NCBI GenBank assembly: GCA_003971905.1
Contig: RSEE01000013.1
Location: 868,001-932,000, forward strand
DNA: 64,000 nucleotides
From: Moniliella sp. 'wahieum'
Lineage: Eukaryota
Direction of reading: 5' to 3'
This document shows, one piece after another, positions 37,007 through 64,000 of this stretch (within the stretch, counting starts at the first letter, position 1; each line of letters starts with the position of its first letter). The translations under genes were made by a program, and so were the position numbers. Below the pieces are notes generated by a model. The model did not search any database and was not told where the DNA came from. It worked only from the letters and a program-made list of their open reading frames with translations.

Positions 37007-37042
<36 letters not shown>

Positions 37043-37512: not shown

Positions 37513-39614
37513 GGTGGCGGGGCCAGCACAGGGCAGGTGGACCCAATGGGAGGACGTGGCGGGTGGGAAGCAAAGGCCGGGGGGTTCTGGATGGTGGACA
37601 CCAAAGTATACCGAAGCTTGAAGCTTGAAGCTTGAAGCTTCGAGGGTGCTTATGCATTATGGCCGACGTCAGTACGTCCGTACTCAGTCCCGTATTCAAT
37701 GCGTCAACCGCAAGAGTGAGCCTGCATATTGATATTGATTCCAGCGCCTGAAACAGCGGCAGTGCCTAGTGCCTAGTGCTTGGTGCCTGCGCCTGGCTGG
37801 CGCCGTGCCGTGCGGGAGCGGAGCTGCGTGTTGCTTGGCCTGAAGCATAACCAGTGATCGATGATCGCCAGTAGGAAGTGCCATGGGCCCACCAGTGCAC
37901 CCGCGGAGTGCTGGCCTCCGTGCAGCAGCACGTGGGCAGTGCTCCAGTACCGGCCGATCACCGATCCAATGATCAAAGGGATTGGCAGTGCTGCGTCGGT
38001 GCCGCGTGGCGCGTGACTGGGCGGTGGCACAGGTGATGTGTGACGGCGTCGAGTGACTGACTAGCTGACCAGACTAGACTGGTGATCAACTCGTGATCGA
38101 AGTGATCTGCGAGGGATCGGCGCCCTCGTCTGAGTGCTCGCCTGCGCCCGCTCCCACAGTTGGGCGCTGGAAGCTGCGAGTTCAGCCGAGGCCGCAACGC
38201 AACCAGCCGCCACAGGGCTTGGCACACGGCAGGCTGCTCCATACATACTGCCCTCCCGGTCCCATCGATCGACTGGCGAGCCATGCACATCCATCCTCTG
38301 CCCTCGCGGGCCTTGGGCCTTGGGCCCCGCTATCAGGGACTGGGCCTCAGTCGCCACCAACTTGACGAACCGAACGAACACAGCAGACCGGAGGCTCAGG
38401 CCCTGATCGGCCTGATCCCCGCCTCGCAGACCTCTGCTGTGACCAAAAACAAGTGTCGGCTAAGGCTCGGATGCGATATCTGAGATCGGTCAGATCCATG
38501 CCGATGAGCGCGGCACACTGAGTTAGCTGGTACTGACCTACGCGCTCATCGAATGCATCATGAGCATGAGCTCTCGGATCTCGGGCTGGCATCAAATTGA
38601 TCTCGATCAGAGCTGAACAACATAGGCTCGCGTCAAGCAATCAGGCACTTGCCCAGTCTAGTCAACCAACATCCGACCGGGTGTAGCCTGGTTTAACGTT
38701 TAATGTTTACCAGTTACCGGTATGCCGGCGCTTTCCTGCGCCCTCCCACCACGGCACCTCCTCTCCCCGCATATGGAACAGCCGCCGCGAGCACAACCCC
38801 TAGCGCAATCATTGTTAATCACGCGTCACGCGTCACATGGGACCGTCACCTGTCACGCATGTCACATGTCACACGGTATCCCATCGACAGAAGCGTCTTT
38901 CAACACCAGGTGCCTGTTGCAAACGCAGCATCTTTTCCTACTCGCCCTCGGCGTGTCAGCTGACCCAGGCTTAATCCTTGCCCGGCCCTCCGCCTCGGTT
39001 TCGCTCGGATGATTGGCTTGGGCCCATGCCAGTGCCCAGCCAGGACGGCGGAGGCCGACAACTTGTAACCCATTCACATGGTTCGCACCCTCGCAGCCGT
39101 GTGATGCAGATGCACCTGAGCTTGCTGACTCTGAGATCATCATCATCATGCATGCATCTCATCCCCGACCATCGAACAGAGTTGATTAATTCAACGTTCA
39201 ATATTCAATGCGTTACAAGTTTTTTACGTGTTACGCGTTAATCGAATCGTTAACGTACTCTTCGACGTTCACCACGTTCACCGAACGTTCAACGTGTTCA
39301 ACACGTCCGATAATCGATTAACGCGGAAGACTGCAGACCCTCTACCAAATGCAATGCCATAATGTTGAACCGCCGGTAACCGGCAACCGGTAACCGGTAA
39401 CCCCCAACTTCTTCAACAAAAGCCATAGAACCCCTTTGCGCTGGTGGCATGCACATATGGCACGCCCTGGCACGTCCAGCTCCTCCGCTTCTCGCTGCAA
39501 TAGTCCTCTCTAAGATCGGACAAGGATTGATTCTTGCATGTCTCTCTTATGAACTCTTGGGGCGTCGATTGTATATGGCCTGGGCGCGACTGTGCGTAAA
39601 ACACACGAGGAGGA

Positions 39615-39978
39615 TTGAACAAGCAGAATGCGACAAGAACGCCAAGTACCAGGGACGCACTCAAGAGCCGTTTTTCCCCCTGGTTTGACGACGCGAGGAT
39701 ACTACGGCACCAGACGGCGGGCAAGTTGTTTGCGCATTGGAAGGAGTTGGCTACTAAGTCTCAGTGGAAATGGTTCCTCGCTCGGATGTCAACCACGTTC
39801 CTCCGTGTCCACACGCGCTTCCTAGGGTACGGGACCGGATGGCGTGAGCCGGAGGGTCCTGATATCCTGGCGATCCCCTGGTCCCTTGACCCTGGTGGCG
39901 CCCCAAGTAACCCCGCAAGATGAACGGTTCGGTTTAGACGTAGCGTTCCCCCTGTCCCAGCCTTAAGCTCTGTCAATG
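39615..39978 (+). mobile_element. 3' fragment of a non-LTR retrotransposon (CRE/RLE-type), copy 1
   Basis: Near-identical to 50965-51332 and to the rc of 63385-63675, all sharing the 3' end CTCTGTCAATG. Encodes AECDKNAKYQ..PFFPLV. Confidence 0.7.
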
Positions 39979-41580
39979 GAATGCACACAACCTAGAGATT
40001 TGCCAGGACTGGGAGAATCGGATAGCAGACAACAGAGAGGATCGTGTTTTTGAGAGCTGGGGGCATGGATGAGATCGATGACCATAATAGGCAATCGTCT
40101 GTTCAAACACGGTTTCAACGTTCAACGTACGGGGGGTTGCCGGTTGGTGCGTATACGGGTGTGCATCCACTTAGAACCGGCTCTCTGCGATTGTAGACGA
40201 GCACATGAACGTGAGGACGTGAGTAGCGTGAATCGTGCGTACTGAGTACACTGAGTATAACTCAACTGAGTGCTTCAGTGGGTCGTGGGCGCGTGAAGTC
40301 GTGATGCTTGAAGCTTGAAGCTCTAAGAGTCTTGAAGCTTAAGCTTTAAGCTTAAAGCCTGAGGCTCAGGCCTGAAGGCCTGAAGGCCATGAAACCATGG
40401 CATCCTTCAAAGCTCGTACTCGGGTAGTTATCCTGTTTTTGTTTCCATACCACGCATTAGGCACTGGACATCTGAGATCTGAGCTTCTGAGCGCACTGCC
40501 GATCCTGTCGCAGGGAACCGGCACAGGCCAGTCTCACGTCCTTCTTCGTTGTTCCGTCACATGTCACACGTCACATGTCACAGGCTACGGCTCCCTGAGG
40601 CCTGACGCTAGGACAAGGCAGCAGCGGGGCAGTGTACAGGTGAGGTGATCGTCGCTTCAATCCCGCCTTGTCCCAGCCTCTCCCCCGTCGTTTGCATTTT
40701 TGCCATTGCATCATATGCATCGGGATTTGTGGGGATCTGCCTGGGTGTGTACACCAAAGCCGTTGTTTCCCCCGTAACGCCCTCATCCACTGGCCTTTGG
40801 CATACCGATGGCATCAATGAGATGTGCCATGTGCACCCCATCGAGGTGTGGTCCCTTCCCCTTCGAACAAGCCGCGCGCGCTATCCTACTCTTGCATTCC
40901 TATCATTTACAAAGCTTAGGGCTAGGGCAAAGTAATCCAGCGCTAGCAGATTCGCTCGTCAAACCGGCGTGTGTTGCTGCTGTGCCAGCCCAATTCGTAG
41001 TAGAACAGTTGAGATTCGCCACCAGGACAGGACGGGACCCTCAGGCCTGAGCCTCAGGCCTCATCGATCATCTGGCACCCCCGTCATTCGCTTCCAAAAA
41101 CCACATGTAGCGTGTGGATATACGAACGAGTGCTATTAACTAAGTAAGTACTGAGTGCGTGGTAGACGGAGTATGCGCGCGTTAAAACGTCAACGTCTCG
41201 TGTTGATTATAATGAGATCAATGAGATTAACCGATATATAACCAGGCTTCAAGCTTCAGACCTGTAACCTCAGGCCTCAGGAAGGCTTTCCAAGTGCCCA
41301 AAAGAATCTGTTGTCGTCTTGGTGGTGTCACTTGGCCGGTAGGCAGAATGCATGACCGGCATGACCTAAGGGAAGCCTTACTTGACGTGTTTTTTGTCGC
41401 ATTTCGCTTTCCCCAAAGGCGAAAAAAACTCCTTTTTCTCCCTTTTCCACAGGTGTTTGCGGTTGCTCTCTCATGTACCACCTTTCGGTATCATTATGTT
41501 GTAACCATACTGAGCCTCCGTATTGCATTTCATGCCCGAATTCCTCAAGTCGTGGTTCACCTGTCCTTTTTCACCTCCGA

Positions 41581-41953
41581 CTTGTTAGCGTCGGACATTC
41601 TCCTCTCCGACTCGTCCTCCAGCATCCGTCAGTCCAGTCGCGCGAGCCCTCTCTGGCCGCGTCGATTTCCAGTGTCTATCCCGTCTCAGTTGAGGCAGTG
41701 TTTGACCATTGCTGCCTCCTCCTACCGTCCCTAAGTCCCGCAGGCTTCAGACGCGTTACTACGGCCCAAGTCGGTGCAGACGCAGCCTTGCCACACGAGC
41801 AGCCGCCCCACCAAAGGCCTCTCCTCGTCCCTAGCTCCGCTCGGATACGCCAACCACCCAAGCCCGAAACTACCGTGAGTCGACCTACCGTCGCCTAATG
41901 GATTGTACCCCCAAAAACCCCAGGCGGGCCCCCTGGCGGCGCCGCCCGTGACA
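41581..41953 (+). mobile_element. 5'-truncated copy of the LTR family
   Basis: Aligns with ~1615-1972 and ends in CCCGTGACA. The 5' part is missing and no TSD was found. Confidence 0.85.
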
Positions 41954-43642
41954 CCATTCCTGATCATCCTAATGCTCCTGAACCCATCACTCAGTTGTCC
42001 GTACGCCTGGCCATCCTCCCAGACTCCGTCTCGTCCTCTTCCCCCACAACCGACTCTTTGATAACGTGATATGGCGCCTATATGATCCTCCGCCTCGCTT
42101 AAGGCTATACGTGTTGATCGCCCTTTGTACGCTTCTGCATTCATCTCAGTTTTAGCCCACGGCGCGTCCTTTTGCTGAAAATTGTTTCAGTAGTCGCTCT
42201 TCAAGCTTCAGTGTTGGTCCTATTCCCCGACCCCTATCGTATTAGCCATCAAGCTATTTGCCAAGCCTCCCATAACGTTAGGCAGGCTCCCGCCGTGTCA
42301 CCGTGTTGCCACAAGCGCGTATGGGTGTTGCGGATGAAGCACCACGAGCCTGAGGATCGGCTCCAACACAATCTTTGTGCAACGCGCCAACCATGGATTG
42401 GGTGCGGGCGCAAACCAAGATGTGTTCAAGCAACGCAGACTCTTACAAGAGTGCCACCATTTCCTCGGTTTCCACCCCTTTTGTGGTCGTACGTCCGAGT
42501 GTACTACCACTGATGGCGTATCCACAGCGAGGTAGGTTTCCTTTCCTTTGTGGTCTTGCATTTGCTTTCTCTTCTGTCTTTTAACGCTCGGCACCGTCTC
42601 CTCGCTCCTTTTGCTTTTCATCAGTCCGAGACCATCACATGTGGTGGTGATCACAAGCTACATATACTAGTAGTCACCGTATATAGCCCTTTCAGTCTCG
42701 GGCGGTGCGGTCTCAACGCACAGCCAATTAGCCATGGCGCATCACAACACACCTCTTCTCGCTATAGCTCACATGCGAGGGACACACTTATTACTCCTAT
42801 ATTAGTATATGTCAGTAGAAAGCATAGCTACACTGCAGTAAGCGTTGCATTCGCAAGACGGAGCCAATGCGAAGGAGAGAGAGACGCCTTCGTGCCGTAA
42901 TGCCACCGCGGTTCCATTTGCCACACTACAATACCCGTTCCCTCCTTTTCCTCACAAGCTGAATCAAGGATGACGCTTCATCGGGGCATCGCACAAAATG
43001 ATGAATCCACTGCATTTTGCCCCCCAGTCACTCGGTAACCAGTATATCTGCTACCATAAAGGCGTCTTAAGGGAGTTTTATCACTCTGCCGTCGGCCACA
43101 AACATCGCGCTTACTAGTTTTCGGAGAAACGTCGAAATTTCTTCTCTCTTTCTCTTCCCTATAGGTGGTAGTAGACCTCGTCATGATCCACGTCCCTTCT
43201 AATTCACAATATCCTTCTCAAATGCATTTCGGAAGGCAACGGCAGGTGAAGTGAAGTGAACTAAACGTGTGCACATTTGGGCATGTCAGAAGGACATAAT
43301 ACGTCTTCTGCATGACGATCCTTGTTCACCACTACATTGACTGACTCTTTCCTCAGCTCCGGCTCCTCTCTGGCGAATTTCAAGACCGAAAGGAGATGAG
43401 CCCTCCTTTCGGATCCCAGCTCTGTGGGGTGAGCCGTGGAGGCTCACGTGTCTGATATACTGGTGGAGGGAGCAAAATGTTTCCGTCGCGTTTCGCCACA
43501 GTTTCATTGTCCTTTGTGCCTCGTTACCTATGCGACCTGCCCGCTAGGTCGAACTGCGGTGCAGCGACTTTATCCGACACTTTTCCTCTCCTCGAGCACT
43601 GTGTACCACGACCAAGGGGACAAATACAATGCATCACCGCCC

Positions 43643-45338
43643 CTACGGCTTCATTCGTGCCGGCACCCACCGCCGCACCGCTGTATCGTGCACTGCATAG
43701 GACGACCGGTCTTGATGGCTTCCACCAGCGAGGCAGGGGAGGTCAAGTGTCCCTCGGAAAGGGCACGCGCGATACTGGGCACATGCACGTGGCACAAAAT
43801 CAACGTCTTGAGCACTTGTGTGTTGACTCGGTTCACCGAGCTGATCGTACCCAGTCCATCGGCCCGGCTGTCGAGTGCACAAACGGTGAACTGACCCGCT
43901 CGCTATCGTCCTCGTACGAGGGCACAACCAAAATGGCAAACCTAGGTGCAGAGTTAGTTAGTTTCCTACAGTTGATCAGGATGTCCTGTGGGAGAGGGGA
44001 AGCGTACTCGGCATGGCCAAAGACAGGGCCGCGCTTGTAGAGCCAGAAAGTCGACACAGAACTTGGTCCCGGCTGAACACCAAACCGAGAGAACGGTAGT
44101 GATGGTAGGCCACGTAGTTGATCAGGAACGGATTGTCCGCCCGGCGCCACCACTCTCCTTCCATCGGAACCTCGGGGGCCAGTACAGAGGGAGCGGCCGA
44201 GGAAGAGAGACAGAGGTTCATCACCTCCTCGGGAGAAAGGGTAGAGCCTTCATTGACCACCTCGAGAGCACCCAGCATGACCGAGAGGAAAAGGTTTCAA
44301 TAAGGGAGAGCTGCACCCATTCCACTTCCTCCAGCGGCTCTTCCTCCTCCGGCGCGGCGGGAGCAGCGGGTACAGCTGGAACAGGAAGGGAAGATGGTGT
44401 GCTGGTTTCCACACAACGGGTGGAGGAGTGGATGACTTCGGAGGTAAGACAACAGGCGCCTCCTCCAACCCGGCCTGAGCACGAGCCCTGGCTCTAGCTT
44501 CAACCGCCGCCGCAGCATCTTCGCCTCCACGGAAGTAGATGAGCCCCGGAACGGCGCGGTACGGTACCCATCGTCTGTTTCTTCCAGCTCCGGTTCGGCA
44601 AAGGTGAGCGACTCGTCAATGTGGAGGATTTTTTTGCCCATCGTCCGAAAGGATGCCACCAGCCGCCTTGAGGGTTTGGATGTCCTCTTCGGTCAGCTCG
44701 CCCCCCAGGGATAAGATTCCATCTGCACGTTGCGTTCCAGCCCGCACCGCCGCCCTGGCTCGCTCAATCTTGGCTTGCAACCTCTCTCGCCGTCGTACGG
44801 CCGTCAGTTCTTCGGCCGTCAAGATGACCGGTTGCCCGGCCGCTTCCGCTTTGGCTCGCTCCGCCAGCACGTGGCGGGTATGTTCCCTGCGCGCCAACCA
44901 GGTCGGCTCGGAGCGGGAGAGAGAGCCCTTGCCAAAGAATCCTCGGCGCCACAAAACCTGGGCTCCTTCGGGATCGGTGACCCAGACGGAGCGCGTCAGG
45001 GCATCGTATTGTCCTACAACGGGCGCAGGCAAGGCGTCTGCACTCTGCTGAGGCCACCACGCAAGCACGCGTTCCCATAAGCTCAACTTCTTCCCGCGCG
45101 CATCCAAACGTGCAAACACAGCCTGGTCCGCAGGTGGCACATCAAGCAAGGGCAGTGCGTGGCGGTACATGCGTTGCTTGTCCATCCGCGACGTACCCGG
45201 CTGAGTGCTCTTGCCCGTATTGGCCGGGCCTGCATCGGCAGCCCAACCGGGAACATGCGCCTGGCCGCCACCAGCACGCATCCCACGCCCTCGTCCACGC
45301 CCACGGCCTCGTCCGCGTCCTTGCATGGGAGGAGGCAT
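43643..45338 (-). CDS. SEN2: tRNA-splicing endonuclease catalytic subunit
   Basis: LWRRGFFGKGSLSRSEPTW, EWVQLSLIETF, DNPFLINYVAYHHYRSLG, LYKRGPVFGHAEYA and C-terminal RRWVPARMK. GTATGT-like introns are not clearly resolved. Confidence 0.9.
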
Positions 45339-45668: not shown

Positions 45669-45744
45669 GATGGATGGATGGATGGATGGATGGATGGATG
45701 GATGATGGATGGATGGATGGGGATGGATGGATGGATGGATGGAT
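45669..45744. repeat. (GGAT)n microsatellite
   Basis: About 18 GGAT units with two interruptions. Confidence 0.95.
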
Positions 45745-46049
45745 TGCTTGATTGATTGACAGGGTGGATGGACAAGGGAGCTTGAATAAACAAACATTCC
45801 GTTCTCGGGAGCTAACAAACAGTCGGCGCACGCAGCGCAGGCACCCTCGAGAAGACATGCAAACCAAAGATAAACCGTATGGAACAGCCGGGGGCAACAG
45901 GGATGGGTAAGGTACAATGGGACCAGGATGGGGAAACGGAGCAAAGCACAGGGACACGGCTGTCCCGAACATGTAATATGACAGATAATAGAACCGAAAC
46001 AAACGATGCGGATGAGCTCTGAGATCTGAGATCTGAGATCTGAGAGGGA

Positions 46050-48600: not shown

Positions 48601-49029
48601 GATGGGCAGGCAGCTGGGAAAAGGGAGTGCCAAGGGTACAGAAAGTGTACTGTTGGTGAAGAGAGGTGACGACTAGCAGCACACCTGGCTTGCCATCTGC
48701 ACCGGGCCTGCGGACGATGCGGGGCGATGTGGGCGGGGGGGAGAGGGGCGTCGGAGCGAAGGCGACGGATGTGGGGCGTGGGCGAGGCTGGATGCGTATT
48801 ATCCGCTGGGCCAGGCGTCTGTGCTGGTGCTGGGCAGCAGATGGAGGCGGGGGTCAGAGGCAGAAGGGGCGGTGGTGCGAGCCGCGTGTTGGGTCGCCAG
48901 CGGGGCGTGCGACTGCTTGGGTGCAACCAGCTGGCCAAGCGAGGCGTCGCGGTGACCGATGAGCGTCGCATATGCAATCGCCCGCACAGGGACCGTGCTC
49001 TCTGGCGCTCAGATCCAGATCTCGCACGG

Positions 49030-52000
49030 GGCGTGATCGATGATCAGCTTCAAGCTTCAGTGTTCGATGCCAGCGCTCAGCCGCTCAGCCATCGGTGACG
49101 GGGACAAGGCCACACGAGCACCTCCACATCACCACCCCCATCTCACGCTCAGCCGCTCAGAAGCTCTCAGATCTCAGATCTCACTAGCTCACTGGCCAAG
49201 CCCACACGCCACCGGCCATCTATCCCACATCATGAGCATCATGTGCCTCATGCAGCAGCATGCGAATGCCTCCTCCAGTTCACCATCGCGCCGGCCAAGC
49301 AAGGAAGGGGCGAATGCACAGAGCGTGGACCCTGTGTGGGATTCATCGTCCCCAATATACTCGGTTACTCAGTACTCAACGTACTCAGCGCTTTGGGCGG
49401 CTAAGCACTCAATATTACGAGTACGCTCTGTACTGGCACGTAACCGGCCCCCTTCTGTCCCAGCCAACGTAAAAGCTTAGTGCACTTGAAGCTTGAAGCT
49501 TGGAAGCTTGAAGCTGTAGAAGGACCTCTGAGGCTGAGCCTCAAAACATCTCTCTCGATCTCAATGTTCTCAACTAACATTGCTGAGCCGCTGGAAGCGT
49601 GAAGCTTGAAGACCTTGAATTACCTTGAAGCTTGAAGCTTGAAGCTTGAAGCTGGAACCTTGAACGTGTTGAACTCAACGTTGAGCTGGAAGCTTGAACC
49701 ATCTGCTGAACGAATGGGCCGCTACAGTCACGAGGTAGTCACGGTGCCCAAGTGATTAGTGATTAGTGACTAGTGGCTTCGGGCTGACGCGCCACATGTC
49801 ACTGGGTGGCCGCCCAGGTAACTGGGGAGCCCGTGCGGCCCTTAGGCCTTAGGCCTTATAGTATTGTCTTCTCAGATCTCATTGAAAGAGAGCTTGAGGA
49901 TGGACGAAGAAACGCTACGCCCCTGCATCACGCGTATCACGCATCATGCCCTCAGGCTCGCTCAGAGCTGAACCTTAGCACTCATCGACATCGGGCGTGT
50001 GCTGCCGCTTGCTCTTCGTACCACCCAATTAGGAAGTCGTCAGAAGGTCAAGCTCTCTGGCTCGCACCATTGGCTTGCGAATCTGATGTCCAGACGAGAT
50101 CTGATGCATATGTTGTAGCGCGGGTGAATACGAATGAGCGCGTCGAGTTATAACTGTCGTGACGTGTTGAACCGTGCCTAAGCGAGGAAGAGAGTACATA
50201 GCAGGATGAACATGTAACGTTCAAATGCTTAGTTAGGCCTTAGGCCTTAGGCGAGTTCGCGTGGCTTCGTGGGTACGGCACTTGATGCATGTTGAACGTG
50301 TTGAACGTTGAACGTTGATCGATGATCGATGATCTCGATGATCGCTCGGCCCTATCCAGCATCACTGCATCACCGGCATCACCAGCCCCACGGCTTGGAA
50401 TCGGTAGGGGAGATCGAGAGCACCCTCGGCACGAAACGTTGGCTTGTATAGGAAGCAATGATCGATGATCATCAGTTACGCGTTACGCGCTACGCTTCAG
50501 TGCACACTGGGCGGCCGACCAGCAATCGCGTGTCCCACCAGAACCGAGGCACGTGGGGCAGGTTGCCGAGCTATACAGGGTGCAAAACAGTCACGCGGTC
50601 ACGCGGTCACGGTGACCGGTGACCGGTGAAGCTTGAAGCCGGTGATCCGATGAGCACGGAGCCTTCTCTTGTGAATATGAGCCAGCGCTGACCCGCTGAC
50701 CCCTGAGCCGGGGGCCGCCGGCAGAGGCCTCTCTAGCTTCCCTGAGGCCTGAGGCTTAGGCCTGTGGCTCAGGCGGCCTAAGGCCTCTTAGCCCAAGGCC
50801 TAAGGCCTAAGGATCAGTAACGGATAACCGTAACCGGTAGCCAGTAAAGCCGAAGGCCTGGAAAGGCTTAGGGTTAAGGCCAAGCAGCATAGGCCTATCA
50901 CGTGCCAGTGCAGCTTTTTAGGCCTTGGGCCGCGTTACGCGTTAGGCCTTTTAAAGTCGGATGCTTGAACAAGCAGAATACGACAAGAACGCCAAGTACC
51001 AGGGACGCACTCAAGAGCCGTTTTTCCCCCTGGTTTTGACGACGCGAGGATACTACGGCACCAAGACGGCGGGCAAGTTGTTTGCGCATTGGAAGGAGTT
51101 GGCTACTAAGTCTCAGTGGAAATGGTTCCTCGCTCGGATGTCAACCACGTTCCTCCGTGTCCACACGCGCTTCCTAGGGTACGGGACCGGATGGCGTGAG
51201 CCGGAGGGTCCTGATATCCTGGCGATCCCCCTGGTCCCTTGACCCTGGTGGCGCCCCCAAGTAACCCCCGCAAGATGAACGGTTAGGTTTAGACGTAGCG
51301 TTCCCCTGTCCCAGCCTTAAGCTCTGTCAATGAAATGGACGTGGTCTAGGTTTGGAATTTGAGACCCACACAGCAAAGTGTGAGACGAGCATTCCTGCCT
51401 CGGCCTCATCCACATCAGTCCTCCGTCGACGCGTCGACAGAGAATATTGATATTGATGTGGCCTGAAGCTCAGGCCGAGGGCCTTTCTGACCTGAGGCTC
51501 ACAGACTTCAGCCTGAAGCTTGAAGCTGCCGCTCACGCTCAGGGCGCTCAGAGCGCCAAGCCCACACCTGAGGCAATTATGCGAGTTACGGCCCTGAGGT
51601 CTGAGGCCTGAGGCCTGAGTTAACGTGCTACATGTTGACGTTAATCGATAACCACATTGAGAGCTTCTCGTAGGCAACAGCCTCAGCCTATAGGCTAAGG
51701 GCAGAACCCCGCCGGTCACCTTGTACCCACCCCTGTCACCTCAGATTGAGGGCTCCTCCCTCAAAAGCCTCATCGACCTCATCGGGCTCGCCGCCTTACC
51801 GCCTCACCTTGGCGCTCAGCTCTCATAGCGAGGGGCTGAGCTTCATTGAACGTTCTGTTAAACCAAGATTCCGTATCTTCCGTCGGGGGGCGAGGGTGTT
51901 CTGTACTGAGAGCGGAATATCCCTGAGCCATCCTGGACATTCGTCCATGTCTATCTCGTATTCCCTGCCTGAGGCCAGAGACCCCTCAGACCTCAGCCTG

Positions 52001-52110
52001 AGACCTGTGACCGGGTGACCACTGAGTCTCAGTGTACTGATCTGGGTCAAGATCCATAATCGATTATCCATGATCCACATAAATCCATGACACTGTCATG
52101 TGGACCTAGC
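49030..52110. repeat. Field of 7-bp-period palindromic micro-arrays (NNTNANN units)
   Basis: (CTTGAAG)4 49624-49651, (CCTTAGG)2 50238-50251, GTTGAAC-GTTGAAC-GTTGATC-GATGATC-GATGATC 50300-50334, GGTGACC-GGTGACC-GGTGAAG-CTTGAAG 50611-50638, and CCTGAGG/CCTAAGG arrays 50740-50812. Confidence 0.85.
50965..51332 (+). mobile_element. 3' fragment of a non-LTR retrotransposon (CRE/RLE-type), copy 2
   Basis: Open frame EQAEYDKNAKYQGRTQEPFFPLVLTTRGYYGTKTAGKLFAHWKEL..FLARMSTTFLR resembles the KxxKY..FxPxVxxxxGxxG C-terminus of restriction-like endonuclease domains. Same 3' end as the other two copies. Confidence 0.7.
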
Positions 52111-53497
52111 TCAGCCTCAGCTTTCATGGTATCCGTATTTGGTACGCTAGTCTGTACTCAGTCAATCGCATGTCTGTTCCGGTTCTATGATAGTCCCACA
52201 ATTATAACAGTTCCATCGGCAAAACGGTCATACCTTTGATAGTTTTGACCGCATGTTCGGTCATGCATCATGCACAGTGCATGCCAGCCGCGGATGACCT
52301 TATTGGCTTGAAGCGCTTTTGAGGGTACTTACAGGAGGCTGCGACGGGGGTTGAGATTTTGAATGGTTTTATAGCGATCGAGAGTCGTCCCGAATCTACT
52401 GTCGAGAAGACCAAAAATACCGTGCCAGTACTACTCAGTGCATGCCAATTTATAGTCAGAGTTGCAAGACAGTTTTTCTACCATCATGATTACGATTTCT
52501 TAAGTCGGACTGATGTTGCTCAGGATGTTTGTGGTGTGTTGATGATTAGAATTGAGGGAGGGAATATCCGATAAGGTGTCACGCGTCACAGCCCTCTTAG
52601 GCCATCGATCATCTGGCAATCTTCCCTCCGTTGTTCCCTTGCTTCACACAGTCATGCAGTCATCTCCTCTCCTCTACCAACGAATCCTTTGCAACCTTGA
52701 GTACTCGGATCTACTCGCCTCCCCCTGGCTCACCTAAAATGCACCTGTTGACTGTGATCCTCCGGCTCCCAGTCGGTAGACCAGGTTCGCCTCCTCGGTT
52801 CCATCGGCTTCACGCTGGCGTCCTAGCGTGTCACGGTCCCTGTGCCCTGCACTCTCTCCTGTTGTGTGACTCACTGGCCCTGTGCCTAGTCCGGCCTCCT
52901 ATATAGATGCCTCTGTACCCAGACCCAACTCTGGCTCCAATCCATCACCTTCTCCTCATCCTTCTGCCCGTCCGGCTCCCTATAGGCCAACAGCACCCAT
53001 AGTTGACCATTCTCTTACTCTTCATTGTCCTGATCAAGTTAGGAAAGAGTATACGTCACGGATATACCGTGAAGCTTCAAGATTTAGGCAAATTAATGAA
53101 GCCAGTCAAAGGTGATGAGCAAAACGAGAAGATGGGACAATAAGTTGAGCTAGAACAGAGAGGTAATAGTAATAGTACATCGTACAGGGCCAGGGTACTA
53201 AGTGCCTGGTTCCCCAGATTGGCTCAATCTACCTTTATTGATCAGCTCTCGTGTAACATGTAACAAGCCCCTCCTCTGACCCCTTCCACTCCACACGCGT
53301 TGTTAACTCGATGTTACAGGGTGACGGCGGGCGGGCGCGAACCGGGGAGAGCTCATACTTTCCCCTTTCTGCTCTTACCAAGGTCGTGTTTATGGCAAGA
53401 CTGATGGGCTGGTATGTCCGAACGTGAAACAAGCTCATGTATTTTGTGTCTAAACCGAACACATGTTCAGTTCGAGCTACTATTATGCAAAACTCTG

Positions 53498-54373
53498 TGT
53501 TCGGAGGGGGCCCGCCCGGTGGGGTTTAGGGGTACAATTATCCCTTGGAGATCCTAAGGTCGACTCAAGGTAGTTACGCGCTTGGGCTGATTGGTGGGCC
53601 CGAGCGGGGCTAGAGACAAGGAGATGGCTCTTGGCGTATAGCAGAGGCAACAGTAAATGTCGCAAGGCTGCGTAGCACCGGCTTGGGCGGCAGGATCGTG
53701 TCTGAAGCCTCTGGGTTCAGGTACGGGGAGTGGCAGCGGAGGACCAACTCTGCGGGACTGGAGCTGGACTGGGACTGAGGGGGGTGTGGCTAGGAGCAGG
53801 ACCACACGCGGCTGAACTGAGTTTTGGGCTTCGGCGTGGCGCCTGGGAGGCACACCCAAACTGGATTGTCTGAGGACGGAGAGTTGAAGACGGGCGCTGG
53901 AGGACGAGGATGGGAAGAGGAGGGGAGCAACTAAGAGAGGATGAGTTGCCTGTACTGGGTTGATCAATTGGCGAGGAGAGTATACTCTATAGGGGGAGAC
54001 GCCAATGGGCCGTGGGGGGAAACCATGAACCATTGCTAACAGACAGAGACTAAAAGGGAAATGATGCACTAGAGGACGAATGGCGGACAGGGGAAAACAG
54101 GGAGACGGTTACTGCACGGGCAACCTAGAAACTAGGTAAGGTAAACAGGTACGTGGCGACTATCGTCGCAAAGGAAACTACTGACAATTGGGTGGCCATG
54201 CGGTAACCACCAATTCACTTGGGCAAGAGGCGACTATTGTCGCGCGGATACGTCGGACAGGTCATCGCGCTGGCGGTCTTGCCAGCCGCGATCGAACTGA
54301 GTTGGATCCGGGTGCGCGCTGAGCGGACGGGCCTCAGCTGAGATCGGATCAGATCCAATCTGACCCATGACCA
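53498..54373 (-). mobile_element. Diverged (old) member of the same LTR family
   Basis: Colinear motifs shared with 60294-61113: GGGGTACAAT, GGTCGACTCA.GGTAGTT, GTGTCTGAAGCCT, GCCTGTACTGG, GATCAATTGGC and GGCGACTATTGTCGC. Ends are degraded and no TSD was found. Confidence 0.7.
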
Positions 54374-54576
54374 ACCTGGGGACGGGGTTAGGAAAGCGAA
54401 AGGCGCGCGTAGGCTCTGACGGGCTTGCCGGTTCATCTTCGCCCGTGAGACTTTCGTACGAGCAAGTCGATCCTTATTGCGTTGGCTTTTTGAGTCCCTC
54501 TCTGATTTTATCCTATCTCGAATCTTTTTTTGGACCGGGGGTGGGCGCATATCATCAGCTCTGAGTTGAGCTCACG

Positions 54577-54624
54577 TTTCTGATGGGCGTTAGTTCTTGA
54601 TGGGCGTTAGTTTCTTGATGGGCG
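54577..54624. repeat. Short tandem repeat, about 3 x 17 bp (TTCTTGATGGGCGTTAG)
   Basis: Read directly from the sequence. Confidence 0.8.
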
Positions 54625-57582
54625 CGTCTCGTATATACTCATTGCGAAGCTCTCTATCGCCTCATGATTTTCTCTTTCCCAGCGGAAGGTGGAGAATCGG
54701 CCCTTTTTACTTTGGGTCTTTCTTGTGTTGCAGTGGCCGCGTTCCCGTTCCCGTTCCTCAGGTGTGGCTCATATTTGTGTGGAAATCATTCCCGACTTGG
54801 TCTGTGCTCTCTTTTGTGGATCATCGGCCTCAATTCTTGACTTATTTCCTAGTTGCATCTCTTCTATTCCTTATAGATGCTGTCTTCATGGCCATTGTGA
54901 TCCATATTATTTTCCCCTATAGCGTACCTTTTCGTCTTCTTTTTATCTTTGTAATCACCATCTTTTGCCAATCCATCATTGACACAATTGGCAACCCCGT
55001 GCTTCTCTCCTGGTTTACCAGCGTCCCATGAATCAGTTTCCAGCGCCCACCCCACTTTGTTTTCCTGCATCCACTCGACGGGACATCTAAGTATACTGCA
55101 TATCTCCAGTATCCAGTTCGCCTGTACGGATCTCCCGTCGGCGATCCTATATGCAAGGTATAAGGGCCTGTCCGACCTTATTGTTTTCCTGTGTCATCCT
55201 TCCGGTCAACCCATTAGGGCTACGGACTACAGACTTCTCTTGTTATGGTGTGTAACACGCAACCTTGCCACGCCAGTCGACACCCCCACTACATCCCAAT
55301 CAAAAGGACTCACCTCGTCTCTTGCTCTGGTAGGATCTGTGCCCGCCGCAGCGTTCAGGCTTGATCAACCGCGAGTGGTCTGTCCACCTACAAAAGGAAG
55401 CACCCTTAAATTACAAGTCGGGCCCCAGTTCAGGGCCGCCCCTAACACTCGGGGACGAAAAAGGCCAGAAATACATCCAGAAAGGAGAAAGCACACAGGC
55501 CCACAGAATGATACCTACTTCCCTATAACTAAGGGAGAGAATGTTAATATAGTTCGGGTTATGCTGACCCCACACAAACACTCTCACAGTCAGACATAGC
55601 CACCACAGATTGACGGAGGCATCTTCTTGATCTGATTACAGACCCTGTTTCCCAAGTGCCTCTATGATGCTATAACCCTCTCCACATCGGATTCAGCTCG
55701 CACGGTTCCAGTTTCAGAAAAAAAACATATACTTCGTGACACGGGGGCGACAGGGCGGACGACTGTGCCGCAGTCGAACTCATATACTTCTCTCGTCTTC
55801 CTTGCATGGATAGGTTGTATCTAGGCCAGGAACCGGGCTGGCTCTCCTAATAATAGACGCTAAACAACCCATGTACTCCGTCGTGACCAAACAGAGAATA
55901 TTCCCTTTCCATTCGTCCCACGTTTGCATCGAGTCGAGGTGGTCCACCCGTTGGTTTGTTGGTCCCTGCTTTTATCCTGCTCTGATTTCTTTCTACTTCA
56001 ACCTAGTTGTACGCAAATGAGTTTGAGTACTGCGTGGAGCCGATTTTGATCGTAGCGTCCCCCATTATGGCGGCGAGGTTCTCCCCTCATGCTATTTTGC
56101 GGGCTGCACGTGTTTTGACTGTTCTCCCGTTTCTGACACGGAGTGTGGGAAGGGATGCCTTGTTTTGGTCTGTGTTTCTTGCTGACAGCCATCACGTCAT
56201 ACTCTTGTCTCCTTGCCCGTTTCTTCATTGCTTTCTTCATTACTTCGATAGATCTTGGGTCTGTACGGCTCTTGCGATCCATATGTTATTTCCCTCACAA
56301 GGTAGGGTCATTTCTTTTTCATTTCGTTTTTCCACGTCTTCACTTCTTTGTATTAAGGTATGCTGTTTGCCAATCCAACCGACTCACGACATGCAAATCC
56401 TGCGCTTCTATACTAATTTGCCACAGCAGCACCCCAGACCAGTATTAAGCGAACAACAACTCGCCTGTTTCCACTTCACTGGGTAGTAGCCATTACCGTC
56501 CAAGTTCAGCGTCCTTGCGACTGGGCATTAAAGTTGCCGTGCCCCACATCAGTAGCCATGCAGTCTCTTCATCAGTATGTGGATCCAATCATGCAAATCG
56601 CGCGTGATCATATACCAGAGTTGAATTGTCCCAATGATATAGCCTGTCCGGCCCTGTCTCGTTCCCTGAGTCGCCTTCCTAACCGGCTCTTCCTCTGCAC
56701 CTCAAGCTCACCACAGGGCGCTCACCGCTGGCTCCCCTCCATCTCTTTGCTTTTATTTTCCCCTCAGGATAAGGCCCAAGGGGGGACGCGTGACGCCGCT
56801 GGTACGGGCGAAGTGCCGGGCGCGGGCTGTTCTGAGCTCAGCGCGCTCAGCTCAGCTCAGCGCCAGCCTCGCAGCGTCACCGGTCACTAGGCACACTCCA
56901 ATTGACACAGGGACAGTGTGGTATCTGAAATGCGTTTCTCCGATCACCGGACGGGCACGAGAAAACTGCACCACCGCAAGGCGTGGCACAGCAGCAGAGT
57001 GCGAGAGCGTGACCCTGGCCAAGCAAGCGGAACGAATTTGACGAGTAGCCATGTGCTGGCTCTCGCCTGCCTGTGCGGTGCCATCCAGACAGGCCGCAGA
57101 GCCACTCTTGTCCCATCTCAGATGGAGGCGCTCGGCCTGAGGCTTTTTCCTGAGCGGCTCAGATCAGCCGCCGCAGTGACTGGTGGCATGCATGACATGT
57201 GGCATGCCATAGTCAAGCTGTCAAGCTGTGCCCAGTTCCACGCTTCAAGTGACTTTTCCAAATCGCAAGCCCACGCCTTTTGCCTGTCCCACCGCTCTCA
57301 ATCCTCTTTGCCCGCCATCCTGAGCGTCCTGGGCGGCATCATCCTCGTCCGCCCGCTTCAACCAGTCTGGCCTAGCGCCCTTGGCACGCGACGCACCGCA
57401 TTCGCTTCTCTGCGCGCTCTGCACTAATCCCTCCCTCCGGGCCATTCCATACTCCATTGCGACCAGCACAGCCCTCACTGCGCCTCGCTAGTCTGCCCAT
57501 ACCCACCCACAGCCTCTCCCTGCAGCATACCCGTATACACACGGCTCCCCGCCCGCACCATCTCCTTGCCAAGCTCCGTGGC

Positions 57583-58767
57583 ATGGAGGTCTCCAATCAA
57601 TTTCTCCCCGCCTCCCGCGAAGGACGCTACTATTTTGTCGGCATTCAGTCACGGGGAGCCAACTGTACTTGTGATCAGCAGCTTTACCCTCCTGCCCTCT
57701 CCTGCCCCAAAGGGCAGACATGTGTGCAAACGCTGGTCGCCCTGAGCTGTGGACGTTCCTGTCCTTCGAACCACTGCCAACCTCAACCGGGCAGTGGCTC
57801 CTCCAACAACTCCTCTGTGGCCGCCGGAGTGGGGGGTGGTGGGTGCGTTTGTCCTTCTTTCTCGTTGTTGGTGCGTGGTGGTTTTTCTGGCGCAGGAGGT
57901 CACAAAGGCGAGAGGCTGCCGCATGGGCTGCTCGAGCACGAGCCAAAGAAGCCGCTGCTTCCAATCCCTTCCGCCTGGGCCAGAACCAACCAACCTTTGC
58001 CGCCCGAGGAAAACGAGACAGACGCACATGTGACGGCTACACCGAGCCCAAGAACTATGCGCAGAAGTTTCCAGCCCTTCCACCTGTCGATGCTGCTTCG
58101 CCTCATCAACGTAGGCCAAGCTTGGATGAACGTGATATGGAGTATACCGAGTTGAGGACGATGGGCTCACCGCCTTCACCAATCAGTCTGAACGAAGCGG
58201 GGAAGAAGACGAACTTGCGATGCTGGAAGCATTCCAAAAACGCTTCTCCACCTCAGCTGCCACCCACCTCTCACGCATTACCGAGGCCGAGGATGAGGAA
58301 TGGCGCTCTACTCGCACTGGCTTGACAGGCCGTACAGGCAAGACGGCGAAAACGACGAAAACGACCAAGACAGGAACAGGACGATCCAGGGTGATGATGG
58401 CGAATGGGCTCTTGGCTCCATCGATTCGTAGTGGACGCCATCCTCCGCCGCCTTTACCGCCTACCACACCTCTTCCAACCCCCCCAACCCCCCTGACAAC
58501 CAAGGACGTCACCGAATCCATGTCTCTCCCGTCCTCAACCTCGCGGGACTTCGTATCGGCCCGCTCTGCACCTCTTCGTTCTCCGTTTGATGGGGTGGGC
58601 GAGGTGAAAGAGGAAGAACCCACAAGTCCATTTCAGGATCCAAATATCTCCAATACAGGTCTGGGCGGCACATCCAATCCCCCCCGATCGAAGAGCATAC
58701 TCCAAACGACACAACTGGCGGCATTTACCCTCCTCCACGGGGTGGACCGGAGGTCTTTCCATCCTAG
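57583..58767 (+). CDS. Opy2-like single-pass membrane anchor (Cys-rich ectodomain)
   Basis: CTCDQQLYPPALSCPKGQTCVQTLVALSCGRSCPSNHC, a Ser/Gly linker, VAAGVGGG..TM..WWFFWRRRS and a low-complexity cytosolic tail. Frameshifted; stop codon inferred. Confidence 0.6.
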
Positions 58768-60293
58768 GAGATTCCGAAGACGCTCATCGAACTTCTGCCG
58801 CCTCGCCCCCTGCGCACCCTCCACCCTCACCCACACATCACTCTTCTCCGCTCTCCGCCTCTTCCTCCCTGCCCCTTGCTCTTCCGCCTCAAAGCACAAG
58901 ATCTGGTGCTCGCTCTCCCCGGGTTCACTCCAAACGCCGGTTTCGTTTGGACGATGAGTAGCTGTGACCAGCTCACGTTGCCCCTAGGAGAAACTGATCC
59001 CTCTCCAAACCGGGCCACTCTTCTCCTTGCCCGCCCCCCCCCGCCTGATCCCCTCGTTTCTCCCACCAAACAATTCCCCACCCCAGCGACTTTTGCTACG
59101 CAGGGGTGTCCTTTCATTTTCCCTGCATATCTCTTTCCTTGATGGCAGGACCCATCCCACGCTCATTCTTTTCATGCCTGGTTTTCTGCAGCAGGAACCT
59201 CTTGTTGGGCGGCATGCTCTTTCATGTTGGCTCAACGCCAACTGATCCTTTCTCCCCTCCCCCTGTCACTTGCGCAACGGAACCCAACCCAACCCCCCTT
59301 TACCCTCCCCCTTTTTGTGCACATACTAGGTAGTACTGCCGAAATAGAAAAAAAGAATAGCGCGTGGATCTCGTGTTCCAGTGTCCAAGTCCACCCTCGC
59401 TTAAATTAAGTTGGGAGACAATTTGGAGGAGAACGAAGGGGCTTCGAAGTAAAGTTGGTGCCGATCATTGTTGTCGTCCAGGGGGAGCTCAAGTTGGTCC
59501 GTACTGGGCCTACTAGCTACTGCAGGTTACGTTGATTGCGTCAAGCACATTCTGTGATAGATTATGGCGGCGGTACTCAGTAACTCAAGCCTCAGGCCTC
59601 AGGCTCCAGTCTGAGACGGGCGGACATACTTGAAGCTTGAAGCTTGAAGCTTGAAGCTAGCTCGAAGCTTGAGGAACATGCAGTTGCAATAGAGACGGTG
59701 GCGGACAAGTATATCACCAGCACAGGGGATGCACAACCGCAGTGTACAGGGGGGAAATAGGGGGTGAAAATTTGGCTCACGTGGACTCACAGCTTTTCGA
59801 TATCTCCCCGACTCCTTCCTTCACCATCGCGCTACAGCATATTAGGTGGTTAATGTGTACGAGGACCGCAGCAGAGGTGTAGGGACGAATGGCTAAACAA
59901 AAGCTTCGGAATGGATTGGAATAGAGAAGATGAGAATAAGAGATGGATAATCGATAAGAACGGGAGGGAAGCGGCAATAAGGAGGCAGGGTGACTAAAGC
60001 TAGAGGAGGTACACTGGCATGCTTGAGAAAAAGGAGATGTGATCGAGTCTGGCCCGGCAACTGCCGGTGAGTAGCAAGCCATCAATTTATTGCTTTGTTT
60101 CGGGGCCGATGTGGTGCCGACACCACATCGACAGTTCATCAACTCCTTGAATCGGCTGCACGCATCAACCTTCACCCCACAGTTCATCTACTCGTTCAAC
60201 CGGCTGCACACATTTTTCCCTGAGATGCAATATCAGTTGTTTAGGCGCCCACTGCTATGCAAGCCTCTAACGTATCAGGAGACGGAGATGGGG

Positions 60294-61113
60294 TGTCACG
60301 GGCAGGCGCCGCCAAGGGCCCGCCCTGGGGTTTTGGGGGTACAATCCCTTAGGCGACGGTAGGTCGACTCACGGTAGTTTCGGGCTTAGGCTGGTTGGTG
60401 TATCCGAGCGGAGCTAGGGACGAGGAGAGGCCTTTGGTGGGGCGGCTGCACGTGTGGCAAGGCTGCGTCTGCACCGGCTTGGGCCGTAGTAGTAACGTGT
60501 CTGAAGCCTCCGGGACTTAGGGACGGGAGGAGGAGACAGCGGCGGACAAACACTGCCTCAACTGAGACTGGGAATCGACGCGACCAAAGGAGGGCTCGCG
60601 CGACTGGACTGACGAAGGGCTGGCGGACGAGGTCGGAAGAGAAGTCGGACGCTAACAAGAGCAAGCTGCCTGTACTGGATCAATTGGCTGGAAAACGGGC
60701 AGGAGTCGGACAGGATAGGCGGGAAGGTAGACGAGGGGGTTGAGACGAGAATGGAAGGTGGAGGAAAAGATCCCCATCAACCAGGGGTACAGGCAGGATC
60801 AAAAGGGAAACGGATACAAGAGGGGGTGTAGAAAGGAAGACAGGCGCGACCGAGAAAGAAACGGAAACGGGAACGGGACGGCAGACGCCGCCACAGCACT
60901 GGAAACTCGGTGGCCTTATTTAGGCCGGCCGACTTGGACTTGGGCGGGGGGCGACTATTGTCGCACGGAGCATGGCCCTTCGGCCACGATACTTAATTTA
61001 GCCAACCATCATCACACTTGGTTGGCCTGCGGTGCACGCTCTACTGGACATGTGCGGAGCAGGCGGGCCTTAGCTTCGGTCGGACCATCTCGAGTCCGCC
61101 GCAGCCCGTGACA
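60294..61113 (-). mobile_element. Solo LTR (820 bp) with 5-bp TSD TGGGG
   Basis: Runs TGTCACGGG...CCCGTGACA with TGGGG at 60289-60293 and 61114-61118. It is the reverse-complement homolog of 1152-1972. Confidence 0.92.
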
Positions 61114-62967
61114 TGGGGGAAGGGACACAGATGAATTGGATACGTCTATGGACAAACAGGAGGTATATGTACCTCCTCAGGAAGGGGGCACAGTCGAGAG
61201 GTGGACACAGGATCTCCCAACTGATAGGAATCATGCCATATTAGTGCCCATACTACGGGCCTAGTGGGCCAAGGGCCCCCTAGCACGGCGTGAGTCTGAC
61301 ATAACGGGACACAACACCTAGCTGCGGACAAGTAATACACACAACACTATAGTATTAGCCGATGTCCTTAGTAGTATACCCTCGCAAACTCAGCCGCATC
61401 CTCAACCCCAACCACGGTGATATCGAGACGACTGAGCTTGGTGCCTTGAGAAGCACACTGAAGGAGCTGTTGAGAAGTGCAACACTTTGTGTCACGACCA
61501 AAGACGGGCCGAGGAGCCCAGTGAGAATGTACGCCCCCTCTTGCAGTCGTCGCGCCGCGGACTGTGGTCCACTTGGGGGGCTACCCTATCCACCGCTGGA
61601 CATACCCCTTCCGGCTCATCTGACAAGGGCCGAGATATAGCTGGCTCCCAACCTCCCCGTCGTCGCGGCGATCGTCGATAGAACGTACCACATACCCAAA
61701 ATGGCTAAAAGGTGGCCACCACCCTTACGTATCCTCCTTGACAAAAAGTTGCACCCTTTTCCCTTTTGCTTTTTGATTCCCAACTGGGATGAGGTTGCGC
61801 GTTAGGGGACGGACGTGAAGGCGGGAGGCTCAGCTAGAATCTAAGAACAGGCAGGTTTTATAGAAGAGGAGAGGAGCACGAGGGGAAAGACCAAAGTACA
61901 GAGTCAAGCGGAAATGAGCCAAAATAGGCAAGATGCGAGGACCAAAAGCACGAAAGGCACGATGCGAGAAACGAAGCAGGTCTCTAGGACAAAGCGGACC
62001 CCAGACGAAAATCAAGGCGAGAAACCAGGAGTCGAGAACATGTACAGAGTTTGAGAGTTTTATAGACGAGAGCGATAGGCGAGAAGAAGAAACTGGTCTC
62101 GTAGATTGTTTTGTGTACTTTAGAGATGGTAAGAGAAGCCGAGGCGAGAAGCGGGAGCAATGATCAATAGGAGTAGAAGTGGCTATGCAAGGCGACTTGG
62201 TCGCCGTTCCCGTCCCCGTCCCTGGTACCACCTTGCATATTCGTCAAAATAATGTGGAGAGGCAACTCTCCCCTTCGTGCGCTTACTTGCCCGCTCTGAC
62301 TTGGTCCCTCCGCTTCTACAGCTGCCCGCCTCGCAACTCTCGAGCTGATCCACCATCCAGAATTCTAGCCAGCATCCCAGTGCCCCGAAGTCATTCGCAG
62401 CCTCAGTTGCAGCTTCAATGCCAGCTCCGCCTCCAGTCTCATAGTCTGAGCAGCGTTGTCCCCCGCTCTCTCGCCCTCTCGTCGCAGGGAAAAGCAACGG
62501 CTTCAGACAGACCACTAGTACGTTCAAAAAGCGATGCCTTTTGCAGCCTTAATAAACACACGCTCAAGCATCCCCTAGACACCAAAAAGTCTCTCTATAG
62601 TTCCAAGCTCCGCTTGGCGCCGCCCCCCAAACCCACACACAAAACTATCGGGAGTCGAACCTTCTCTCTCTTGTATCCCTTTAAACCCCAGCTGTCCCCA
62701 AGGCTGAGGCCAGGCGTAATACCACACATACATGCAGTACTGGATGACAACACGCGGTCGTACCCACTGTTTGGGACCCTACTTACGGTAGTAATAATCC
62801 CTAGTATATACCTTGGATGGTCCACACGTTCGCCGTCCACCCTTCCGTTGTCTATCACTGTTCCTTGCCCACGGAGGGCGTGAGAGGAGAGAAGGGTAGG
62901 GCATGGGCTCTGCACATTGCGTCGGTAAAAGGCGGAAACGTTGACACGGTTGACTACATATATATCA

Positions 62968-63365
62968 CTAGAAGACCACCGGGCCTACGGCCCGGTCAGC
63001 TGGGGCTTCGCCCCAGCTTGATGCTTGGTGCACCGTCGCCATCTTAGCCACCGGGTCCGCCCCACCGTAGCCACCGTTCCCCCCATCGCCACCTTAGCCA
63101 CCGGTCCACCGTTCCACGCTGGAGAGCGGAATAGTATTCACCACTACGCCTTGGGCAGAATTTTATCACCCATGTGCAGCAGCGTGAACTGGAACGTGGC
63201 GGGTGGCACACTTACCACATAATCTTGTGCTGGGGTCAGGAAAAAATGCCCCAAATGTGACGCCACATGGTGTAGTGGCGCCGGTAGCCCAAGTCCGGAA
63301 CCTTCTGGTTTGTTCCGTGCAATATTCCTTCTGGCTGGCAGGAATATTCTAGCCTCTGTAGCTCA
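62968..63365 (-). mobile_element. Helitron-like element, 3' portion (minus strand)
   Basis: The minus strand ends in two GC hairpins, then GGTCTT, then CTAG|T, the same 3' end as the element at 63366-63995. Homology runs to ~63178 and the 5' end is not seen. Confidence 0.6.
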
Positions 63366-63995: not shown

Positions 63996-64000
63996 TGTTA

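Follow-up and report, generated by a model that had tools for sequence, protein, structure and literature searches.

What process writes tandem heptamers that share a rule of symmetry rather than a sequence? The question is raised by a 64,000-nt stretch of the genome of Moniliella sp. 'wahieum' (assembly GCA_003971905.1, contig RSEE01000013.1, positions 868,001 to 932,000; hereafter the window), and in particular by its sub-stretch 49030-52110, which carries arrays built from the triplet TNA and a 4-bp palindrome, the repeating unit being xyTNAy'x'. An earlier, sequence-only reading had taken these arrays for candidate excision footprints of a hAT-type transposon. The analysis confirms that TNA-palindrome heptamer arrays are real and strong. 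They are probably excision footprints, stacked on one another, of a DNA transposon of the cut-and-paste kind with a 7-bp target-site duplication (TSD), an element that the window does not contain. The idea of iterated footprints carrying hairpin-derived palindromic nucleotides is thus retained from the earlier interpretation, while its hAT specifics are not.

The window has 45 exact runs of two copies at period 7, where 20 dinucleotide-preserving shuffles give 3.5. The unit can be rotated to xyTNAy'x' in 33 of these 45 duplications, where chance would give 2.7% (448/16384 by our arithmetic), and none of the 45 has an odd-palindromic unit with a centre other than TNA. Counted as the 10-mer TNA-palindrome-TNA, the grammar is found 96 times in the window, as against 7.0 ± 2.3 in 50 shuffles; about 7 of the 10-mers are to be expected by chance. 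The sequence-only reading had predicted an excess of this kind over both shuffled DNA and ANT-centred controls, and the control behaves as it anticipated: the other 15 pairs of outer letters around a 4-bp palindrome all lie at background, ANT with 10 occurrences for 8.0 expected. The second triplet is TNA in 192 cases (14.7 expected), with TNC, TNG and TNT near background. As had also been claimed, many unrelated cores obey the one rule, since 12 of the 16 possible 4-bp palindromes are seen as filler and only AATT, TATA, TTAA and CTAG are missing. Fillers of four nucleotides that are not palindromic (TNA-NNNN-TNA) show no enrichment, with 108 for 116.9 expected; plain retention of a 7-bp duplication is therefore not the source of the arrays, and the palindrome is intrinsic to them.

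In 80 of the 96 10-mers the two triplets share their middle base N; in 14 the two bases are complementary and in 2 they differ in some other way, whereas random mutation of N would give complementary and other changes in a ratio of about 1:2. Of the 80 pairs that share N, 64 have G or C there. Beyond the T-N-A itself the target preference is weak (C at position -3, 0.42 versus 0.33; G or C at N, 78% versus 70%). Pairs of TNA seven nucleotides apart, a spacing for which the sequence-only reading had expected a peak, occur 51 times in 49030-52110 for 18.4 expected; the gene-dense region 2300-36900 lacks such a peak (50 versus 41.5). A third of the signal (33 of the 96 10-mers) falls within 49030-52110, and the remainder is clustered at 0-2 kb, 36-42 kb and 58-60 kb. 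The scars are thus concentrated in gene-poor stretches, where the density of TNA is doubled, at 238 per 3081 bp compared with 1198 per 34601 bp.

The two arrays that the sequence-only reading had singled out lie where it placed them, CTTGAAG in 4.3 copies at 49624-49653 and TCTGAGA in 4 copies at 46018-46045, and the core can indeed switch while the 7-bp register is kept, as at 50302-50332 (ACGT, ACGT, TCGA, TCGA) and 50613-50636 (CCGG, CCGG, AGCT). The origin of the filler becomes apparent at the edges of the arrays. The window holds 74 maximal chains of TNA and 4-bp palindromes, with 148 ends, and the chance that a flank matches the neighbouring filler is about 1/16 per side. The two nucleotides upstream of the first TNA continue the period in 39 of the 74 chains, and the two nucleotides downstream of the last TNA do so in 35. 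Both flanks match in 17 chains, and those with a match on one side only are divided roughly equally (22 versus 18). Pooled over all 148 ends, the length of the periodic extension peaks at exactly 2 nt (49 ends at 0, 25 at 1, 41 at 2, 18 at 3 and 10 at 4), and among the 43 singletons the summed extension u+d has its mode at 2 and lies below 4 in 26. For the most part, then, single events do not copy a whole 7-bp unit in tandem. In the elementary change, pqTNArs instead becomes either pqTNA q'p' pqTNA rs or the mirrored form pqTNA rs s'r' TNA rs. Where a chain has mixed fillers, the filler at its right end mirrors the flank on that side in 4 of 4 chains; at the left end the agreement with the left flank is complete in 3 of 4 and covers one of the two nucleotides in the fourth.

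A second class of product shows the duplicated unit directly. Thirteen TNA-centred 7-mers recur after a 2-nt spacer. In 12 of them this spacer reverse-complements the 2 nt of the 7-mer beside it, compared with 3 of 83 for 7-mers with other centres. These products, a net gain of 9 bp, have the form [pqTNArs][2 nt][pqTNArs]. Among 47 fillers of this type, 12 satisfy the conditions on both flanks, for 0.2 expected by chance on our estimate, and by our reading of the individual cases 7 of the 12 products cannot be taken as plain 9-bp tandems. Period-8 cases, a 7-mer and one nucleotide, are also present, for example at 50597. Duplication of the 7-mer, templating by the flank, the requirement for TNA and the retention or complementing of N are all shown by these counts.

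We propose that the element would enter through cuts staggered by 7 bp with T-N-A at their centre, leaving one copy of the target pqTNArs at either end of the element. On excision the transposase would seal each flank as a hairpin exactly at the border between element and flank (offset 0, as with RAG and Transib). A host nuclease would then open each hairpin about 2 nt off the tip, leaving 4-nt self-complementary 3' overhangs, rs s'r' on the left flank and q'p' pq on the right, and end joining would link each overhang to the opposite flank at its recessed 5' end. The result would be a top strand of pqTNA-rs s'r'-TNArs and a bottom strand of pqTNA-q'p'pq-TNArs, of which replication or mismatch repair would fix one. 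Either product would represent a net gain of 7 bp and consist of TNA, a 4-bp palindrome and TNA, with the palindrome templated by one flank; the ligation geometry would thus account for the net +7, for the near-equal one-sided templating (22 versus 18) and for the absence of +11 products. Opening at 3 nt would give the same product as opening at 2 nt, because T pairs with A, and opening at 4-5 nt would turn the middle base into its complement. The +9 class would arise when one hairpin is opened off-centre and keeps two palindromic nucleotides while the other is opened at its tip. Each scar would hold two TNA targets; that footprints recreate their own targets was already part of the sequence-only reading, and two TNA are indeed found in each scar. 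Inside a palindromic array the overhangs would be fully cohesive, so that further cycles could add units in register, with replication slippage as a possible further contributor. What we infer from these arrangements of letters is the transposon, its hairpins and the geometry of ligation.

The component steps have precedents. Flank hairpins, their opening by host nucleases such as Artemis, and footprints left by non-homologous end joining are described as established for hAT, Transib, RAG and MULE (PMC5499845), and 7-bp TSDs are described in fungal transposons, namely hAT7 in rusts and Kyakuja in Laccaria (Kojima 2025, PMC12730594). Two features expected of flank-hairpin footprints are present in the window. 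Retention of the TSD at empty donor sites is seen in the 80 of 96 10-mers with the same N and in the whole 7-mers of the 12 +9 products, and junctions with palindromic (P) nucleotides are seen in 39/74 and 35/74 chains and in 12/13 spacers, with 3/83 in the control.

The chemistry of hAT elements, which the sequence-only reading favoured, also gives flank hairpins and footprints (PMC5499845). In such a scheme an 8-bp TSD of the form nAnnnnTn would be combined with hairpins at offset 1, giving odd palindromes centred on the terminal TSD base and, by our derivation, likewise a net gain of 7 bp; the complementary middle base in 14 of the 96 pairs is what it would lead one to expect. The simplest offset-1 outcome, in which the tip base is kept and the hairpin is opened on the 3' side, places the complement in one copy, in conflict with the identical N of 80/96. 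Moreover, the base after the second TN, where A is obligatory (192 versus 14.7), would be left free unless the empty site already had two TNA 7 bp apart; single events contradict this, since they keep only 2 nt of periodic extension on one side and do not display two full A....T hexamers. Nor can an 8-bp hAT footprint express the +9 class, the 12 direct duplications of a TNA-centred 7-mer with an inverted 2-nt spacer. Pfam detected no hAT domain (dimerisation or DDE) in the open reading frame (ORF) translations of the window. A hAT origin is very unlikely. A shorter duplication fares no better. A 3-bp TNA duplication, of the PIF/Harbinger or CACTA type, with two terminal nucleotides from each inverted end of the element forming the palindrome, would copy TNA on both sides of the filler and make the filler palindromic automatically, and the window does contain an element with CACTAG-ended terminal inverted repeats (TIRs) at 62966-63997. 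It fails because the filler follows the local flank (39 and 35 of the 74 chains, and the 4 mixed chains) and is of 12 kinds; furthermore, the +9 class duplicates 7 bp, and in 64 of the 80 pairs with an unchanged middle base this base is G or C, contrary to the Harbinger target preference for TTA/TAA. This origin is scarcely credible. In a 5-bp version, xyTNA would be duplicated and two palindromic nucleotides added from one flank, which is a possible reading of the commonest product, pqTNA q'p' pqTNA, and the window has a TIR family with 5-bp TSDs, R2. The target would then be asymmetric about T-N-A, with palindromic nucleotides derived from one flank only; on our reading, 10 of the 12 +9 products do not fit, as they would need rs to be T and the complement of N, which holds only at 38404 and 50330; and the R2 duplications (CATAT and TGGGG) are not TNA sites. 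We regard this model as highly improbable. Two further models were tried and rejected on sequence: a 3-bp TSD with a 3-nt-loop hairpin predicts a non-palindromic filler, q'p's'r', and if both hairpins next to a plain 7-bp TSD were opened at the tip, only about 2 arrays would be candidates.

It is also unlikely, though less so than the hAT, Harbinger/CACTA and 5-bp models, that no mobile element is involved and that a host or domesticated nuclease with a 7-nt stagger at T-N-A and hairpin ends, or polymerase snap-back, founded arrays that slippage then enlarged. No transposon is visible in the window, and slippage can extend arrays of two units, of which the long imperfect arrays may be examples. 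A direct 7-bp duplication, however, requires staggered cuts and fill-in around intervening DNA, which is the signature of integration, and slippage alone would yield whole-unit copies rather than flank-templated palindromes and does not fit the low u+d of 26/43 singletons. The behaviour of the same heptamer elsewhere argues against a general repeat origin. (CTTGAAG)3 is found in at least 121 public metagenome contigs over a wide range of GC content, and around these loci (636 kb) TNA-palindrome-TNA occurs 151 times for 147 expected when AGCT fillers are set aside. The CTTGAAG heptamer thus also arises as an ordinary repeat elsewhere, and as such loci lack the wider grammar, the grammar is a property of this genome and not of these repeats generally; neither a relative nor an agent was found among the metagenome (CTTGAAG)3 loci. 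The least probable explanation considered is that of selected regulatory palindromes (arrays of binding sites) or of a sequencing or assembly artefact. The arrays do sit in intergenic, promoter-like DNA, but neither cause predicts 12 unrelated fillers under one rule, with the filler dictated by the neighbouring 2 nt.

Several points weigh against stacked excision footprints with a 7-bp duplication. Neither flank matches in 17 of the 74 chains, and some of these remain unexplained beyond the roughly 7 chance 10-mers. Of the 13 singletons in which N is complementary, only 5 follow the flank rule, so that part of them may arise in another way. No +11 product, with two adjacent palindromes, is seen in the window. 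The coupling of a gain of 2 nt on one flank with a loss of 2 nt on the other is hypothetical and depends on the proposed ligation geometry. Among the families described in the literature found, none has offset-0 hairpins together with a 7-bp TSD centred on T-N-A. No transposase was detected by Pfam among 168 ORF translations of the window, a search that covered the window and not the rest of the genome, and here the sequence-only reading, which saw no matching transposase, is borne out. Finally, no element with a 7-bp TNA-centred TSD was found within the window.

The translations searched comprise 32 of at least 150 aa and 136 of at least 75 aa from the gene-poor parts, with a few in both sets. 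The sole Pfam matches are in four housekeeping ORFs (dynamin central region, EF-Tu-type GTPase, FAD-binding domain and dihydroxy-acid dehydratase); the 136 frames of at least 75 codons in 37200-45000, 48900-64000 and 1-2300 match no Pfam family. About 25 kb of the window is gene-poor or has orphan genes only. A scan of the window for TIRs flanked by direct repeats of 6-9 bp, together with a search for inverted repeats in 37-53.5 kb, returned only matches of array on array. Self-BLAST of the window and alignments of its dispersed repeats gave no empty and filled paralogous sites and no informative indels.

Two elements with inverted ends were nevertheless recovered. R2 is a non-autonomous TIR element of roughly 820 bp with 10-nt termini, TGTCACGGGC...GCCCGTGACA, whose copies are 81-87% alike. 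The sequence-only reading had expected resident elements to carry 8-bp TSDs with A at position 2 and T at position 7. Both full copies of R2 have perfect target duplications of 5 bp, CATAT and TGGGG. As neither duplication is a TNA site, R2 does not account for the 7-bp scars. The second element, at 62966-63997, is roughly 1 kb long and has inverted ends of at least 65 nt that are 97% alike and start with CACTAG. It contains a fragment of the dispersed repeat R1 and a 106-bp tandem repeat (63675-63875), and its left flank reads TATATAT; its TSD is unreadable, because the window ends 3 nt (TTA) past the element. R1 itself is present at 39609-39990, 50959-51340 and, on the opposite strand, 63380-63675. 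The three copies are 96-97% alike and have a common 3' end, with one copy shortened at the 5' end, and R1 includes an open frame of about 100 codons that matches no Pfam family. The copy at 50959-51340 falls within 49030-52110.

Among known systems, a close parallel to the proposed excision is provided by V(D)J coding joints and the Transib/RAG transposases, in which the hairpin forms exactly at the border and P nucleotides result from opening it off-centre. The arrays share with them 2-nt flank-templated palindromic additions and, putatively, end joining and an offset-0 hairpin (PMC5499845). The clade that unites CACTA/EnSpm, Transib and Plavaka (CMCT) differs from this in its TSD, given as 2-5 bp, compared with the 7 bp proposed here (PMC12730594). 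Elements of that clade have CA..TG termini. The likeness to RAG and Transib is also limited by the proteins, none of this kind being seen in the window, and by the hairpins, which are here putative. The hAT elements Ac/Ds and Hermes resemble the present case in their flank hairpins, in the TSD copies that are kept and in palindromic or complemented bases at the junction; they differ in that an 8-bp TSD, the hAT target consensus nTnnnnAn and offset-1 geometry all fail here and the duplicated unit is a TNA-centred 7-mer. PIF/Harbinger elements have a 3-bp TSD, TTA/TAA, in contrast to a duplication that extends to 7 bp with N mostly G or C. With Tc1/mariner and Sleeping Beauty the arrays share the retention of both target copies around a short symmetric insert, but those elements have TA as their TSD and derive the insert from their own ends, whereas here the insert is templated by the flank. 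The 7-bp TSD of hAT7 of rust fungi agrees in length, but hAT chemistry would by our derivation give a net +6 and not +7; Kyakuja (KDZ) of Laccaria likewise has a 7-bp TSD in a basidiomycete, a match in length (both PMC12730594).

A lead comes from the smut fungi. The '10-bp repeats' of Ustilago maydis have been proposed as footprints of transposable elements (Ali et al. 2014, PMC4081816, citing Laurie et al. 2012 and Schirawski et al. 2010), and this secondary citation agrees with the mention, in the sequence-only reading, of similar arrays in smuts. As described there, these repeats are short, scattered and intergenic, come from the same subphylum and are read as transposon footprints; their length equals that of TNA + 4 + TNA, which makes them a lead, compared by description only. 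The searchable supplements of PMC4081816 contain no mention of the 10-bp repeats. Our literature searches, which did not reach the primary U. maydis papers, found no published description of the rule; for the grammar and for CACTA-like elements with 7-bp TSDs, PMC4081816 alone proved relevant. U. maydis is not a close relative: the best named relatives of the dynamin fragment in the window are Ustilaginomycotina (Ceraceosorus, Malassezia, Sympodiomycopsis and Moesziomyces), at only 53-57% identity. The fungus is therefore related to the smuts but distant from all the genomes named among these matches.

It is a real possibility, which we put forward tentatively, that the arrays were left by an undescribed cut-and-paste family in this Ustilaginomycotina lineage, with a 7-bp TSD centred on T-N-A, border-exact hairpins of the RAG/Transib kind and very frequent excision. 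If so, the legacy of the family would consist mainly of footprints and not of copies, with dozens in 64 kb and probably thousands genome-wide if other windows match. New heptamer tandem repeats would arise from such footprints, and the element's own targets would become twice as dense. Tandem repeats could then originate and lengthen through transposon traffic instead of slippage. The scars would also constitute a large basidiomycete dataset on hairpin opening and end joining, each showing the position of opening and the strand that was fixed. This natural record of fungal hairpin opening would place the opening 2-3 nt from the tip in about 85% of events and 4-5 nt from it in about 15%. Many A-NNNN-T palindromes of 6 bp would have been written into promoters, where they could alter gene regulation. 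The reading would further point to a type of transposon that unusually combines a 7-bp TSD with border-exact hairpins and could be found through TNA-centred 7-bp duplications in the genome, and would supply a concrete rule for the U. maydis 10-bp repeats, so far only suggested to be footprints. The footprint idea as such was known before from the U. maydis proposal (PMC4081816), and both the prior report and the missing agent temper the interest of the finding.

The positions of the individual arrays, variants and R2 copies are collected in Table 1.

Table 1. Arrays, single footprints, +9 products and R2 copies in the window. Positions are those of the window; a slash separates a chain from its flank.
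Position	Feature	Strand
49485..49515	CTTGAAG array (TGA + AGCT), 4.3 imperfect copies	.
49590..49664	TGA + AGCT array, long and imperfect; exact CTTGAAG core at 49624-49653, 4.3 copies	.
49840..49858	CCTTAGG array (TTA + GGCC); upstream CC keeps the period, downstream flank does not	.
50233..50252	TTA + GGCC array; match at the downstream flank only	.
50291..50343	Mixed chain GT/TGA ACGT TGA ACGT TGA TCGA TGA TCGA TGA/TC (chain 50302-50332); fillers on each side mirror the flank of that side; two +9 variants border the chain	.
50368..50383	+9 class, CATCACC GG CATCACC; non-palindromic 7-mer, spacer the reverse complement of its last 2 nt	.
50475..50495	TTA + CGCG array	.
50590..50636	8-bp-period run (GGTCACG + C), then mixed chain GG/TGA CCGG TGA CCGG TGA AGCT TGA/AG	.
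50613-50636	Core switch CCGG, CCGG, AGCT in register	
50741..50812	Degenerate GGCC arrays; middle base G, G, T, C, A, A, A	.
51514..51527	Single footprint TGA + AGCT	.
51593..51619	CCTGAGG array (TGA + GGCC)	.
51768..51783	+9 class, CCTCATC GA CCTCATC	.
37613..37640	GAAGCTT array, 4 copies	.
40302..40366	TGA/TTA + AGCT array, long and imperfect	.
41054..41070	Mixed chain CC/TCA GGCC TCA TCGA TCA/TC; flank rule obeyed	.
41351..41366	+9 class, CATGACC GG CATGACC	.
46013..46045	TCTGAGA array (TGA + GATC), 4 copies at 46018-46045; outside 49030-52110	.
59629..59658	CTTGAAG array, 4.3 copies	.
1152-1972	R2, full copy	
60294-61113	R2, full copy	opposite
41581-41953	R2, truncated copy	
about 53505-53753	R2, partial copy	

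Other repeats and a single RNA gene complete the picture of the window. A long, imperfect tract of TGC/TGT triplets, about 92 units, extends over 36910-37183 and probably encodes, on the opposite strand, a run rich in glutamine. A GATG microsatellite of about 20 units at 45669-45772 has a higher-order period of 41 bp. The only RNA gene found is a tRNA on the minus strand at 5143-5240, for which Rfam gives a tRNA of 97 nt and ARAGORN a tRNA-Gln (ttg) of 85 nt, a discrepancy that is suggestive of an intron.

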